Assembly (NCBI RefSeq): GCF_058153355.1
Contig: NZ_CM177019.1
Reading direction: 5' to 3' (one strand)
Length of the DNA stretch: 64,000 nucleotides
In this document: positions 7,771 through 49,003 of the stretch, piece after piece
Numbering within the stretch: position 1 is the stretch's first letter
How the letters are laid out: the number at the start of each line of letters is the position of its first letter
Notes under the pieces: model-generated
Database searches by the model: none
Told to the model about the DNA's origin: nothing
The model's input: the letters and a program-made list of their open reading frames with translations, nothing else
Made by a program: the position numbers and the translations under genes

Positions 7771-9357
7771 TTAATGCTCGCGAGTCTGGTGGAACTGAAC
7801 GTCCGGATAACGTTCCTGCGCCAGGCGCAGGTTGACCATGCTGGTAGCGATGTAAGCGAGGTTATCGCCGCCATCAAGCGCCAGTTGGCTTTCGTTCTTA
7901 CGCTTGAACTCTTCGAATTTCTTCGCGTCCGCACATTCTACCCAGCGTGCAGTGGCAACGTTGACTGACTCATACACTGCTTCAACGTTGTATTCGCTCT
8001 TCAGGCGCGCTACCACCACATCAAACTGCAGCACACCAACCGCACCAACGATCAGGTCGTTGTTGGAGATCGGACGGAACACCTGCACCGCGCCCTCTTC
8101 GGAAAGCTGTACCAGCCCTTTGAGCAGCTGTTTTTGCTTCAGCGGATCTTTCAGGCGGATACGACGGAACAGTTCCGGCGCAAAGTTCGGAATACCGGTG
8201 AACTTCATCATCTCCCCCTGGGTAAAGGTGTCGCCGATCTGAATAGTGCCGTGGTTGTGCAGACCAAGGATGTCGCCCGGATACGCTTCCTCAACATGCG
8301 AACGGTCGCCCGCCATAAAGGTCAGCGCGTCGGAGATCACCACATCTTTCGCGGTGCGCACCTGGCGCAGCTTCATGCCTTTTTCATATTTACCGGATAC
8401 CACGCGCATAAACGCCACGCGGTCGCGGTGTTTCGGGTCCATGTTGGCCTGAATTTTAAATACGAAGCCGGTAAATTTATCTTCGCTCGCCTCTACGGTA
8501 CGGGTATCAGTCTGACGCGGCATCGGCGCAGGTGCCCACTCTACCAGGCCATCCAGCATATGATCGACGCCGAAGTTACCCAGCGCAGTACCAAAGAACA
8601 CTGGAGTAATTTCGCCCGCAAGGAACAATTCTTTGTCGAACTCGTTAGACGCGCCTTTCACCAGTTCCAGTTCGTCACGCAGCTGCTGTGCCAGATCTTC
8701 ACCAACCGCAGCATCGAGATCCGGGTTATTCAGCCCTTTAACAATACGGACTTCCTGAATGGTGTGACCTTTACCGCTCTGATAGAGATAGGTTTCGTCT
8801 TTATAAAGGTGGTAAACGCCTTTAAACAGCTTGCCGCAGCCAATCGGCCAGGTGATCGGCGCACAGCCGATTTTCAGCTCGTTCTCAACTTCATCGAGCA
8901 GCTCCATCGGGTCGCGGATATCACGGTCAAGTTTGTTCATAAAGGTGAGGATCGGCGTGTCGCGCAGACGGGTAACTTCCATCAGCTTGCGGGTACGATC
9001 TTCAACACCTTTTGCGGCGTCGATAACCATCAGGCAGCAGTCCACCGCCGTCAGAGTACGATAGGTATCTTCCGAGAAGTCTTCGTGCCCCGGGGTGTCG
9101 AGCAGGTTAACCAGGCAGTCGTGATACGGAAACTGCATCACAGACGTAGTAATGGAGATCCCACGCTGCTTTTCCATCTCCATCCAGTCCGACTTAGCGT
9201 GCTGGTTGGAACCACGGCCTTTTACTGTACCGGCAGTCTGAATGGCCTGTCCGAACAGCAGCACCTTCTCGGTGATGGTCGTTTTACCGGCGTCCGGGTG
9301 AGAAATAATTGCAAAGGTTCTTCTTTTCGCTACCTCTGCGGCCAAAAGGCTTGTCAT
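7771..9357 (-). CDS. prfC: peptide chain release factor 3; the first ~21 codons are prophage-derived
   Basis: GTPase motifs [12 protein letters not shown] and DTPGH. ATG at 9357..9355 gives [21 protein letters not shown]. The alternative native 5' end is at 48849..48913 (see findings). Confidence 0.95.
9296..9309. repeat. attL core
   Basis: GGGTGAGAAATAAT, identical to 48849..48862. Imperfect extension ([T/G]GCAAA[G/A]G). Lies in prfC codons for AIISHP. Confidence 0.8.
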
Positions 9358-44780: not shown

Positions 44781-45133
44781 ATGTTTTCGAAATGGAAGGG
44801 TTTCTTCGCGGGAAATGTGTACCGCGAGATCTGAAAGTGAACGAAACAAATGCTGAGTACCTGGTACGTAAATTCGACGCGCTTGAAGCTAAATGTGCGG
44901 CACTGGAAAACAAAATAATACCAGTGTCAGCTGAACTGCCACCAGCAAATGAAAGTGTTCTGTTATTTGATGCTAATGGAGAAGGCTGGCTGATTGGCTG
45001 GCGTTCTCTCTGGTACACCTGGGGACAAAAAGAAACCGGAGAATGGCAGTGGACATTTCAGGTCGGGGACCTTGAAAACGTCAATATCACTCACTGGGCA
45101 GTAATGCCAAAAGCACCGGAGGCTGGAGCATAA
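44771..45133 (+). CDS. YfdS-like protein with DUF551-like C-terminus
   Basis: 120 aa. The C-terminal ...ITHWAVMPKAP resembles DUF551 endings. Confidence 0.55.
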   Translation: MRMNVFEMEGFLRGKCVPRDLKVNETNAEYLVRKFDALEAKCAALENKIIPVSAELPPANESVLLFDANGEGWLIGWRSLWYTWGQKETGEWQWTFQVGDLENVNITHWAVMPKAPEAGA

Positions 45134-45912
45134 TGACCACATTTACCAATAAAGAACTGATTAAAGAAATCAAAGAACGAATCAGCAGCCTAGAGGTTCG
45201 AGACGATATTGAGCGCCGTGCTTATGAAATTGCTCTGGCATCGCTAGAAGAGGAGCCGGTGGCATGGCTGCATTCAGAAAATGGCTTAGGTATTCCGGCA
45301 ATAACGAGGTGTAAAAACATTGCTGACAGTTGGTTATCAAAGGGCTGGTATGTTCAGCCGCTATATATAGCCAAGCCAGTGCCGGTAGTGCCAGATGCTC
45401 GTCCGTCTTTAAATAATGGCATAGTCGGTTTTGATGAAGGCTGGAACGCCTGCCGCGCCGCCATGCTTCATGGTGCCGAACCTGTAAACCAAACTTACAA
45501 GTCACCACACACGCAGTTTGAACAAGTTGCTGACCTCTACGAAATGCAATTTGATGACGGTCGCACTTGTGCCTTTCACACTGATGCGCAAAAGGCTGCG
45601 CAATGGCTTCAGGTGTGCGACGGAAACAGGGTTCAGGAATACGTTAAGCTGGAACGGCTGCAGAACGCGCTGTCTGGCAACTCTCCGGTAAGTCCGGGTG
45701 GTTGGATAAGCTGTAGTGAGCGAATGCCGAATGATAAACAGTATGTTTGGTGTTGGGGGAAGTCTTACGGCTGGACTGAGTGCGATACCTTCGAAGGGTA
45801 TTATGATTGGTCGAGAAACAAATGGTGGGCAGTTACTGACAATGAGGAAGAACAGGCATCGAAAGTAACCCACTGGATGCCACTACCGGAGCCGCCGCAG
45901 GAGGTGAAGTAA
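45133..45912 (+). CDS. hypothetical protein with C-terminal DUF551 domain
   Basis: 259 aa. GGWISCSERMPNDKQYVWCW...VTHWMPLPEPP. Confidence 0.6.
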   Translation: MTTFTNKELIKEIKERISSLEVRDDIERRAYEIALASLEEEPVAWLHSENGLGIPAITRCKNIADSWLSKGWYVQPLYIAKPVPVVPDARPSLNNGIVGFDEGWNACRAAMLHGAEPVNQTYKSPHTQFEQVADLYEMQFDDGRTCAFHTDAQKAAQWLQVCDGNRVQEYVKLERLQNALSGNSPVSPGGWISCSERMPNDKQYVWCWGKSYGWTECDTFEGYYDWSRNKWWAVTDNEEEQASKVTHWMPLPEPPQEVK

Positions 45913-46106
45913 TGAACAACTTAATGACAACTAAACAAGTCGCCGATTTCTGTGGTGTTTCAGTATCGACAGTTCTTCGCTGGAACAGCGTAAACAGGAG
46001 AACTGGTCAGAAATATAGGCCTGACTTTCCAGATCCTGATATTAAATCCTGCCCAAATAAATGGGCATCACACAAGATTTACAGATTTGCGGGAGTGATT
46101 GAGTAA
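45912..46106 (+). CDS. AlpA/excisionase-type HTH protein
   Basis: 64 aa. MTTKQVADFCGVSVSTVLRWN, typical of AlpA/Xis (HTH_17). Last gene of the early-left operon. Confidence 0.75.
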   Translation: MNNLMTTKQVADFCGVSVSTVLRWNSVNRRTGQKYRPDFPDPDIKSCPNKWASHKIYRFAGVIE

Positions 46107-46388
46107 TATGTATTAGCTTAGATGTGAGCTGACACATCTATGCTTAGATGCCAAACCTAATCTGAGCGTCCACTCTTTACCAAGAGCGGACGTTACCAAT
46201 GACCATATGACATGAATCGATAAGATCAAAACATTATCACCAAGAAATGTCATACCATTGATACAAATAAAATTGATTACCCCCTTACTCTTGTTGAAAA
46301 GTTAGTCGTAGAGTACCTATCGCAATGTAATCAGCTTTAATCATCTTAAAATTACTCCTTAAAAATTAGCTTTTATATACTGAACAAA

Positions 46389-47108
46389 TTAAATCTCTGT
46401 TTCTTTTCCTGCTCGGCTCAACCAATACTCCATTGTTTGAGTATGAATCTTTTCAGCGTATATTTTATCAATTAATTTATCTTGTTTTTCTTTAATGACT
46501 TCACGCAGTGAATCATATAACATAAAAAAACGTTCATCATCTTCCTCATTATTACCGTAATTTATTTGATTGAGCTCTGAAAAAATATGATAGTACCTTT
46601 TCTTCTTGGTCCCCGGCAATATTAAAACCAAGCCACATTGATCATATTCGAATTCACCTTTATGGGCAGCAAAGTTATGTCTAACATTCATAATAGAATC
46701 ATGTAAATCTCTGTATTTTTCTGGCACATGCTTTCTCTGCAATGTGAATCGACGCCCTTTCGCCTCTGTAAAACACTTACCGTAAGTAACAACTTTTGAT
46801 ATAAATAAAGACTTTAATATTAGATTCTTTTCTAAATCCGGATAAATAAAGTGTTGTTCTTTATTAATGTTATTACAAATGTTTTTTATTATATTCTCCC
46901 AACCAATAACATTCCGAAGATCTTTATCAAGCAACTGTAAGGCCACATATTGTTCTACAAAGCGGCCTTTTAAAGGTATTCGTGGTAATATTACACCTTT
47001 CTGCTTATAAATTCTTTCTATCGTATTATCTGGATATTGGATCTTCCTTATTTCTATTCCGTCTTCTTCTGATACCCTTACTAATGGTTCATTTTTTAAC
47101 TTTGACAT
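46389..47108 (-). CDS. AT-rich orphan gene, 239-aa protein with RHNFAAH (Rx5H) motif; candidate HEPN-like defence/Abi protein
   Basis: Single ORF with AAGAGGG 6 nt upstream. 14 G/C in the 60 nt at 46861..46920, versus 32/60 at 45601..45660. Motif at residues 143-149 (46682..46662). Confidence 0.6.
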   Translation of the reverse strand: MSKLKNEPLVRVSEEDGIEIRKIQYPDNTIERIYKQKGVILPRIPLKGRFVEQYVALQLLDKDLRNVIGWENIIKNICNNINKEQHFIYPDLEKNLILKSLFISKVVTYGKCFTEAKGRRFTLQRKHVPEKYRDLHDSIMNVRHNFAAHKGEFEYDQCGLVLILPGTKKKRYYHIFSELNQINYGNNEEDDERFFMLYDSLREVIKEKQDKLIDKIYAEKIHTQTMEYWLSRAGKETEI

Positions 47109-47394
47109 GTTAACCCTCTTAAATAAAAAACTAACTTTATCCAGATAGTGTCCGTTAAGAAGTTTTCGTTACAACTAAGTTTCTAGGTAAATCATGAATC
47201 GACCTATAGTATCAAAAACATTTGGTGGTAAACATCTGCATTTATCAAATGGCAGGAGCGATTTAGGGGCATAGGGATAGTGATGATATCGATACTCGCC
47301 CCCCTCTTATGTCAACACAATGGCGTAAACTTAACGCTCACATCTCGCTCAAAGTGTGCTAGGAGATTTGGTTATGTTCAGGTGATACAAACCG

Positions 47395-48618
47395 TCAGTT
47401 TGAATCAGAGATAGTACAATTAACAATCGATTCAACCCTCTTCCACCATGCCAGGTAAGCTTTACGCTGTTCTTCTAGATAATCGCTCTTATCATAAACT
47501 TGCCATACCCCTGGCAGCTTATGACCAAGCATAATTTCTGCGATATGAGGCGCAGTAAGATCAGAAAAATTTGTTCGAGCTGTACGTCTCAAGTCATGAA
47601 GAGACCAATGAGGGAATTGATATCCTAAACACCGCCATGCGTACTGCATTAAATTGTAAGGCAGCGACTGCAATGATGTCCGACCAACGGGTTCCCTGCT
47701 TCCTTCCTTAGTAAAAAGCATATCGGAACCATTGTTCATAGAGATAGCGTACTTTATAAGCTCTTCAACCGGTTCAATAATGGGCCGCTTTAGCGGTTCG
47801 CCTGTTATCTCCCCTGTCTTATGTCGTTCTGGTGGTACAGTCCATACTTTATTAATGAAATCAAAATCGTCCACCCGGGCGGTAATTAGCTCTGAACTAC
47901 GGCAACCAAAATGCAGCAATAGTTTAATGAAGGCCCGGTATTTAGGAACCATTCGAGAACCATCGATCGCAGCATAAAGGATTTTAATTTCATCATGTGT
48001 CAGAAACCGTTTCTTCTGACCTTTACGGATATCCATATCTTTACCCGTGATATCCGACAGCGGGCGAGTTTCAATGAGCTTTCTCTTATACGCCCAGACA
48101 TGGGCCTGCTTTGCGTTAATTAGCAATCGGTCTGCTATTGCTGGAGTCTTAGTGCTAAGAGGCTCCAGGACTTCTAACCAATCATGCAATGTAGCTGCAT
48201 CGTGAGGGATATTCCCGATTTTAGAGAACAGGTGCAGCTCAAACGAGCGAAGTATCTGTTCAGAACCTTTTTTATTTTTTACACAATATGCTTCATACCA
48301 AGCACGGATCACAGACTCTACCGTCATGGCTTCAGTAGCTTTTCGTTTTTCAGCCTGCTTGACCAATCGTGGATTACGGTTTGACTCGAGTTCACCACGA
48401 AGACGGATAACTTCTTCTCTGGCCTCTTTTAATCCAGTTGCCGGGTAAGTTCCGATATCAAGACGCTCACCTTTCCCTGCCCATTGATAACGATATTGGA
48501 ACACTACGCGACCTTTCGGTGATACTCTGACAGACAGACCATCACGATCGGATTTAACCAAAACCTTATCACGTTCCTTTCCAACGACTGAACGCAACCA
48601 CGCATCAGACAGCGCCAT
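47395..48618 (-). CDS. tyrosine integrase, P4/IntS-type
   Basis: 407 aa. N-terminal DUF4102-like region (LSDAWLRSVVGKERDK..LSVRVSPKG). C-terminal HDLRRTARTN, LGH and Y (VYDKSDY) catalytic residues. Confidence 0.9.
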   Translation of the reverse strand: MALSDAWLRSVVGKERDKVLVKSDRDGLSVRVSPKGRVVFQYRYQWAGKGERLDIGTYPATGLKEAREEVIRLRGELESNRNPRLVKQAEKRKATEAMTVESVIRAWYEAYCVKNKKGSEQILRSFELHLFSKIGNIPHDAATLHDWLEVLEPLSTKTPAIADRLLINAKQAHVWAYKRKLIETRPLSDITGKDMDIRKGQKKRFLTHDEIKILYAAIDGSRMVPKYRAFIKLLLHFGCRSSELITARVDDFDFINKVWTVPPERHKTGEITGEPLKRPIIEPVEELIKYAISMNNGSDMLFTKEGSREPVGRTSLQSLPYNLMQYAWRCLGYQFPHWSLHDLRRTARTNFSDLTAPHIAEIMLGHKLPGVWQVYDKSDYLEEQRKAYLAWWKRVESIVNCTISDSN

Positions 48619-48684: not shown

Positions 48685-48848
48685 GATTTTTGATGAAAGC
48701 AAGCTGATCGATTTAAAGTTACATGAAAGAGTTTTCAATTAAAGAAGCTACATAAGCAAATGTATTTAAATGAGTTATATAGCTCAACTTCAATTAACTG
48801 AAAGGATTTTGAAAGAGTAAAAGAGCTTTAATTTGGACTTAATTATTG

Positions 48849-48862
48849 GGGTGAGAAATAAT
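48849..48862. repeat. attR core
   Basis: GGGTGAGAAATAAT, identical to 9296..9309. Confidence 0.8.
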
Positions 48863-48913
48863 GGCAAAAGTGCGGCGCTTCGCCACCTCTTGCAAATAAG
48901 GAGACAACGTCAT
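48849..48913 (-). pseudogene. prfC: orphaned native 5' end of prfC (22 codons)
   Basis: The minus strand from ATG 48913 reads [22 protein letters not shown], then NN-stop in phage DNA. Confidence 0.85.
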
Positions 48914-49003
48914 AATTCTTTCTTCTTGAGTAAGCGGCATCGCGCCGCGCTTGTTGAAAACGAAAAATTGCGGCTATTTTACCCATCAACGGGGGGGAGG
49001 CAA

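Follow-up and report, generated by a model that had tools for sequence, protein, structure and literature searches.

A single-gene cargo beside the integrase of a prfC-integrated lambdoid prophage: a candidate HEPN-type abortive-infection protein

The cargo gene and its slot beside the integrase

The window analysed here is a stretch of 64,000 nucleotides (nt) of contig NZ_CM177019.1 (NCBI RefSeq assembly GCF_058153355.1). It holds a 39.6-kb lambdoid prophage integrated in prfC. Between a Xis-like gene and the P4-type integrase gene (int), this prophage carries an AT-rich insert whose sole gene is an open reading frame (ORF) for a protein of 239 amino acids (aa). This 239-aa protein is the subject of the present study. 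As the initial annotation of the locus had described, its gene shares the strand of int and is convergent with the Xis-like gene (Table 1). No other ORF of more than 47 aa was found within 46107..47394, which agrees with the earlier statement that the flanks of the gene contain no ORF of 60 aa or more. The Shine-Dalgarno sequence AAGAGGG was confirmed 5 nt before the ATG. Compared with orthologues of 77-97% identity, the ORF had a ratio of nonsynonymous to synonymous substitution rates (dN/dS) of 0.09-0.24, and therefore it is a real gene under purifying selection. Of 5426 complete E. coli genomes, 70 carried the 239-aa version, and the exact protein was found on 885 contigs.

The AT-richness of the insert was clear from counts and from a sliding window. 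The counts of 14 G/C in 46861..46920 and 32 in 45601..45660 (60-nt stretches), on which the island was first recognised, were exact, and the sliding window gave a GC content of 0.29-0.35 over 46200..47250, as compared with 0.45-0.52 on the left side and about 0.44 within int. The window was then set against sister prophages (L041-L044), which occupy the same prfC/yjjG site and whose int is about 95-97% identical in DNA. In blastn, homology with the sister prophages ends at about 46176-46200 and restarts at about 47344-47413. Because homology breaks off and resumes there, the exchangeable module was placed at about 46201..47387; the island is thus an AT-rich insert as first annotated, but its variable part is narrower than the span 46107-47394 given before.

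The sister prophages, with the same int, lack the 239-aa gene and hold other AT-rich single genes between the Xis-like gene and int. The occupant of the slot in strain AR434 is an AIPR family protein. The occupants in strains ECE170, SMN152SH1 and ES8 (331, 460 and 413 aa) are unannotated, had no Pfam match at E up to 0.01 and are candidates of equal merit for undescribed defence genes. Since the same backbone holds different single genes in other strains, the int-adjacent interval is a true variable cargo slot, with one occupant in the named abortive-infection family AIPR. This bears out the proposal that the 239-aa gene is a single-gene cargo in an int-proximal slot; the gene was acquired horizontally, and the slot is variable. 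A shared flanking backbone around unrelated genes, one of them a recognised defence gene, is what is expected of cargo in a defence hotspot. In P2-like phages, the int-att and int-primase intervals have been reported as minor defence hotspots (PMC13586616).

A candidate promoter with an extended -10 element was matched upstream of the gene by a relaxed scan on consensus only, and a standard promoter scan missed it. The 157 nt upstream of the ATG accompany the gene into a different phage context, next to umuDC, with 81% identity, and the promoter hexamers are only partly kept in that copy. No terminator was called between int and the 239-aa ORF, so transcription by read-through from int is equally possible as transcription from its own promoter. 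No noteworthy tandem repeat lies in the flanks of the gene in the island. A small partner ORF or a repeat-RNA antitoxin in the flanks was considered and rejected, as neither was present in the ORF and tandem-repeat scans. A known RNA family in the flanks was rejected as well, the Rfam scan having given no meaningful match.

An imperfect 11-bp hairpin between the two convergent units had been noted before. It is real (46168..46193; -16.4 kcal/mol on the plus strand and -18.7 kcal/mol on the minus strand, z about -5), but it lacks a T tract and received no terminator call. This hairpin and a second one beside it lie within the backbone stretch conserved in the sister prophages, and the hairpin was therefore rejected as a part of the cargo insert.

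Insertion sequences (IS) were observed in three other copies of the island (L050, NZ_CP116067.1; L051, NZ_CP151000.1; and NZ_CP182374.1). In one genome, an IS1 has inserted into the 3' end of the ORF, which alters the C-terminus and changes the ORF to 253 aa, and in another the element lies just downstream. An IS3 is annotated in the island of another genome, in which only a part of the island (from about 46592 of the window onward) is kept, and this suggests a split ORF. A viral contig (L033) was considered as a diverged allele and rejected, since it holds a frameshifted copy of the gene.

Table 1. Features of the cargo slot, its occupants in sister prophages and the flanking genes. Positions are those of the window unless a locus number is given.
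Feature	Position	Strand	Basis and remarks
Intact prfC	7771..~9357	minus	
64-aa helix-turn-helix (HTH) protein, Xis/AlpA-like (putative label)	45912..46106	plus	HTH_17, 22.5 bits, cut-off 27
Two hairpins	46115..46144 and 46168..46193	no strand	-13.7 to -18.7 kcal/mol, z -3.4 to -5.6
Variable cargo module	~46201..47387	no strand	GC 0.33; blastn break points against sister prophages
239-aa ORF, ATG start	46389..47108	minus	UniProt A0A0B1N468_ECOLX (exact protein); PHROG 8440
Rx5H motif codons, R143-H-N-F-A-A-H149 (candidate catalytic site)	46662..46682	minus	Translation and family conservation
Shine-Dalgarno AAGAGGG	47114..47120	minus	5 nt before ATG; AAGAGG conserved in L029
Candidate promoter TTTACC, 15-nt spacer, TG-n-TACTAT (extended -10)	47206..47232	minus	Relaxed scan, consensus match only
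P4-type tyrosine integrase	47395..48618	minus	Pfam Phage_integrase, Arm-DNA-bind_3, Phage_int_M; directly upstream of cargo, same strand
prfC remnant adjoining int	48839..48940	minus	22 residues, then NN and stop
Slot occupant, strain AR434			566-aa AIPR family protein; PF10592, E 5e-43; GC 0.37
Slot occupant, strain ECE170	L042:2689-3684	plus	331 aa, unannotated, WP_000653746.1; GC 0.32
Slot occupant, strain SMN152SH1	L043:2924-4306	plus	460 aa, unannotated, WP_249823524.1; GC 0.33
Slot occupant, strain ES8	L044:1998-3239	minus	413 aa, unannotated, WP_015364392.1; GC 0.34

A close phage relative is Escherichia phage 2H10 (Glaedevirus), with 98.1% identity across the island. The chromosomal neighbours of the integration site are yjjG-rimI-holD. 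A 14-bp direct repeat, GGGTGAGAAATAAT, at 9296-9309 and 48849-48862 flanks the prophage and lies within the 5' end of prfC. Judged from the sequence, the phage appears to replace the first ~21 codons of prfC, the gene of release factor 3. The N-terminus encoded by the remnant next to int is, we presume, the usual E. coli PrfC start. On the other side of the slot, the 64-aa HTH gene is the final gene of the rightward early operon; its earlier label as AlpA/Xis finds a resemblance to HTH_17, but the score is below the threshold. The DUF551-type gene (45133-45912) encodes 259 aa in the window and 206 aa in phage 2H10 and other relatives, from which about 160 nt of it (45503..45662) are missing (L001/L033 comparison).

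The protein family and its genomic contexts

No Pfam, NCBIfam or PADLOC model matched the 239-aa protein, and for PADLOC-DB 2.0 this held at E up to 10. Its sole match was PHROG 8440, whose function is unassigned (full length, E 1.4e-142). The narrow alignment against species-representative genomes returned one locus only. A homology search gave 66 matches, and its rerun at E 10, aimed at borderline HEPN-annotated proteins, gave the same 66. A word-indexed search found 25 close clusters in Enterobacteriaceae and Yersinia, and an exhaustive profile search yielded 925 clusters (50% identity, E up to 1e-3), 398 of them with E up to 1e-10. Nearly all proteins of the 925-cluster family are 220-250 aa long and were matched over almost their whole length. 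The gene had been called an orphan, a description that at least 925 clusters contradict. Ninety diverse members were examined: none had a significant Pfam, NCBIfam or PADLOC model, the clade consensus sequences likewise had none, and the 89 members other than the 239-aa protein gave only scattered single matches against PADLOC. All database records for family members read "hypothetical". The family is without description in the libraries searched (Pfam, NCBIfam, PADLOC). It had been suggested that the family might be undescribed, and this stands for all 90 members; the Pfam and PADLOC searches that had been proposed as a check matched no family or defence model.

The alignment of the 90 sequences revealed a set of conserved residues. 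D63, Y109, R119, H136 and R143 are invariant, and L64, W70, K111, F113, A148, H149, G151 and L197 are kept in at least 90% of the members. Translation confirmed that residues 143-149 read RHNFAAH, as reported before. In this motif R143 occurs in 90 of 90 members and H149 in 89 of 90, with a spacing of 5, and the position after R is H in 50 members, N in 39 and D in one. When full-length relatives were considered, 178 of 181 had Rx5H at the corresponding region. At least one Rx4-6H was present in 74% of shuffles of the 239-aa protein, and for this reason a match in a single sequence is uninformative; the protein itself has a second match at R120. The signal is the conservation across the family.

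Relatives of the gene were found on several kinds of mobile elements. In Photobacterium, the homologue is a single-gene integron cassette between two ~120-nt attC-type repeats in an array of about 20. The Vibrio alginolyticus homologue is also a single-gene cassette, between two repeats of a smaller array, and the cassette spacing is 798 nt and 869 nt, respectively. The same 90%-identity cluster contains near-identical copies from at least five species (V. alginolyticus, V. vulnificus, V. parahaemolyticus, V. metschnikovii and V. diabolicus). The chromosomal integron array of Photobacterium sp. J15 (L013:1-16702) has cassettes for DUF2971, DUF2726, FRG, OGG, SRA-HNH and methyltransferase proteins; several of the J15 cassette products resemble defence-related domains.

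Prophage contexts were more varied. In P2/186-like prophages of Enterobacter, Citrobacter and Yersinia, the gene comes directly after int, at the prophage edge and on the strand of the repressor-int unit. A P2-like prophage of Psychromonas (L045:2151-5906) has six cargo genes in a row between int and the repressor, among which HEPN_AbiV, TIR_2 and ion-channel-domain genes stand just upstream of the family member. In other enterobacterial phages, the gene follows umuDC at the prophage end. The filamentous (Tubulavirales) Vibrio phage 10N.286.54.E4_PE002 (PQ189351.1, 10.9 kb) carries a member after the assembly gene (L052:5902-6639); the depositor's note on this member reads 'endonuclease'. The E. 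coli phage-like plasmid NZ_CP104632.1 (101 kb) encodes a 252-aa, 27%-identical paralogue, WP_001407090.1 (L053:6905-7663), which has the lysis cassette on one side and the HNH/terminase genes on the other in a lambdoid region, a second classic cargo position. Elsewhere, the neighbours include SMODS/SAVED genes of the type found in the cyclic-oligonucleotide-based anti-phage signalling system (CBASS) and toxin-antitoxin pairs, and a Pseudomonas copy stands alone in the chromosome. As these contexts show, the protein works by itself and travels as cargo from one mobile element to another, frequently in the company of defence genes.

The frequent position just downstream of int would be explained if the protein were an accessory factor of site-specific recombination, which would control integration or excision or process the int transcript. 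The gene is indeed found directly downstream of two unrelated integrase types (P4-type and P2-type) on the same strand, and in two of the three P2-like cases its ORF overlaps the int stop codon. However, the single-gene integron cassettes have no phage integrase, further members lie after umuDC, in a filamentous phage, between lysis and terminase genes or alone in a chromosome, and the gene is absent from sister prophages that share this int. The many contexts without int therefore argue against a role tied to the integrase, and we consider such a factor very improbable. In other phages, the gene is not bound to the xis-int interval in which the initial annotation placed it.

Predicted structure and proposed activity

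The AlphaFold model of the 239-aa protein had a mean predicted local distance difference test (pLDDT) score of 87 and a predicted template modelling (pTM) score of 0.76. A 32%-identical Photobacterium member was modelled with the same fold (pLDDT 91, pTM 0.83). In the model of the 239-aa protein, the predicted helices 49-79, 92-111, 130-148 and 188-221 form a four-helix bundle, and a long, partly conserved loop (112-129) lies between helices 2 and 3. The Rx5H motif is at the C-terminal end of the predicted helix 130-148, whose last turns run into the following loop; in the Photobacterium homologue the motif is likewise at the end of a predicted helix (123-141). Predicted extras specific to the family are an N-terminal set of three strands (9-36) and, between helices 3 and 4, a beta-hairpin (157-180).

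According to the definition of the HEPN superfamily by Anantharaman et al. (2013, PMC3710099), R is mostly followed by N, D or H, the motif is placed at the end of the third helix, and the loop between helices 2 and 3 is the usual position of inserts. In the family, Rx4-6H is conserved, and the position that follows R is polar (N, D or H) in all 90 members. In the predicted structures, the four-helix layout, the position of the motif and the helix-2/3 loop are also as defined there. Among Pfam families, only HEPN_AbiU2 was matched by more than two of the 90 members (4 of 90, E 0.036-0.21), and in the two matches with readable coordinates the matched part covers helix 3 and the motif. Based on these conserved residues and models, we believe that the family likely belongs to the HEPN superfamily.

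We propose, with a probability of roughly 55%, that the 239-aa protein is a stand-alone HEPN-type ribonuclease (RNase) that acts in abortive infection and is carried as prophage cargo. Several results weigh against this proposal. The readable HEPN_AbiU2 scores were 12.9 bits (P0055) and 11.5 bits (clade consensus) against a gathering threshold of 26.8, and no member reached E 0.01 against this family (PF18734). Foldseek searches of PDB and BFVD gave no match, and profile searches of PDB sequences gave none either, with no HEPN protein of any kind among the results. When the family was aligned by hhalign to the AbiV-type HEPN protein encoded by the Psychromonas neighbour, the probability was 0.1%. 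No PADLOC model was matched. None of the comparisons tied the protein family to a HEPN family with statistical significance, either by sequence or by fold. A further point is the acidic residue. D63 is invariant and E/D61-x3-R65 is common, and both are in the first long helix of the model, whereas the HEPN review puts the second conserved acidic residue (E-x3-[KR]) in helix 2, near the motif (PMC3710099). The last point concerns context: the Pseudomonas copy and one metagenomic copy are without informative defence neighbours.

The earlier statements on a HEPN-like protein can thus be kept in part. R-x5-H is the most conserved feature of the family and has a HEPN-like place in the model, but a significant link to a HEPN family was not found. 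The comparison of predicted folds that had been suggested likewise gave the four-helix bundle in the AlphaFold models, and no match in Foldseek.

These results leave room for a defence or toxin cargo that is not a HEPN RNase, with another active site for DNA, nucleotides or NAD as substrate, or with no catalysis at all. The seven invariant or near-invariant polar residues (D63, Y109, K111, R119, H136, R143 and H149) exceed the canonical HEPN pair, and four-helix bundles yield non-specific fold matches. The lack of significant similarity to any HEPN family speaks for such a cargo, and the evidence from mobile elements and from the slot fits it equally. On the other hand, the sole recurrent weak Pfam match is a HEPN family. 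On balance, we regard a non-HEPN cargo as fairly unlikely. A more specific version of it would be a new kind of self-contained sensor-effector, in which D63, Y109, K111, R119, H136, R143 and H149 would form one composite site of non-HEPN chemistry and a five-stranded beta unit would sense the phage. A sensor and an effector in one protein would explain how so small a gene can function unaided on prophages, integron cassettes and a filamentous phage. This idea is speculative, and we would give it a rather small chance.

The contexts without defence neighbours also suit a moron outside phage defence, that is, a factor of lysogenic conversion or host fitness, or an RNase that tunes host or prophage expression. 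The function of the family is uncharacterised, with every record hypothetical, and prophage ends and integron cassettes carry non-defence genes too. Such a role is at odds with the AIPR abortive-infection gene in the same slot of a sister prophage, and with the HEPN_AbiV, TIR, CBASS-type SMODS/SAVED and toxin-antitoxin genes that neighbour the gene elsewhere. The AT-richness of the gene and its patchy distribution among complete E. coli genomes are moreover typical of defence cargo. We think that a moron of this kind is improbable.

What has been established is a real, selected gene in a swappable slot, which occurs as a single-gene unit on several kinds of elements and has a conserved motif of HEPN-like geometry. 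Beyond an autonomous cargo gene with a HEPN-like conserved site, we infer the working of the 239-aa protein as a HEPN-type abortive-infection RNase as follows. Lysogens would produce the protein, with transcription that begins in the upstream region of its gene or continues from int. A dimer or a higher oligomer would join two R143-x5-H149 motifs, and Y109, K111, R119 and H136 would probably help to form the active site. The protein would stay inactive until it senses a component of an infecting phage, for which the small beta-sheet predicted from residues 9-36 and 157-180 is the candidate sensor. After the trigger, tRNA or mRNA would be cut, growth would stop, and the infection would be aborted.

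Comparison with known systems

HepS of the Salmonella prophage Gifsy-1 (Sargen et al., Nature 2026, PMC13043305) is a prophage-borne single-protein abortive-infection anticodon nuclease. It is made constitutively as an inactive tetramer; a phage tail-tip protein opens the tetramer, and the anticodon loops of tRNA are then cut (PMC13043305). The 239-aa protein is like HepS in being prophage-encoded, a single protein, shorter than 250 aa, with an Rx4-6H motif, and in an accessory-gene slot of a lambdoid prophage. The two differ in that HepS has R100-x4-H105 where the 239-aa protein has the x5 spacing, and in that no N-terminal beta strands have been reported for HepS. The Gifsy-1 record of strain LT2 held no ORF with R100 and H105 of HepS, and the candidate STM2620 had no PDB match. 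By analogy, HepS is the best model for how the 239-aa protein could work.

Tha, from prophages of Staphylococcus aureus, is a HEPN RNase defence that is triggered by a phage structural (tail) protein (PMC11087260). It is prophage-borne like the 239-aa protein, with which it was compared by description only; its hosts are Gram-positive, and its RNase activity is reported to be non-specific.

Integron cassettes offer further parallels. HEPN_AbiU2 (PF18734; AbiU2 of Lactococcus), the sole recurrent Pfam match of the 239-aa family, shares with it the occurrence in integron cassettes. The AbiU2-HEPN cassette HNPBCG_15845 of Vibrio mimicus was present in 94% of the survivors of phage challenge; resistance to T4 and T7 has been reported for it, and cloning it by itself proved impossible. 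Esos, a cassette of the Vibrio cholerae chromosomal integron, has only a HEPN-like domain (bioRxiv 10.1101/2024.07.02.601686). Esos and HNPBCG_15845 were set beside the 239-aa family by description only, and either might belong to it; no Vibrio cholerae protein was among the named relatives of the family. An integron-cassette HEPN protein of known structure (PDB 3jrt) and the HepT/MNT toxins (7ae2, 1ylm) have 8-9% identity to the 239-aa protein and no sequence-level match. HepT acts with the antitoxin MNT. The 239-aa gene, unlike HepT, is without a partner gene.

If the proposal is true, it would give a name and a function to a family of at least 925 clusters that lies outside the Pfam, NCBIfam and PADLOC models. 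The short list of known single-protein HEPN defences that combine sensing with killing, HepS among them, would then grow. The int-adjacent interval of prfC-site lambdoid prophages is also marked as a swappable cargo slot, with three further unannotated genes. Because it moves between prophage slots and integron cassettes, the gene is a handy case for the spread of minimal defence genes. Prophage- and integron-borne HEPN abortive-infection proteins that act alone are already known as a kind. What is new here is a large family without a model, with its predicted beta elements, its x5 spacing and five further conserved polar residues.

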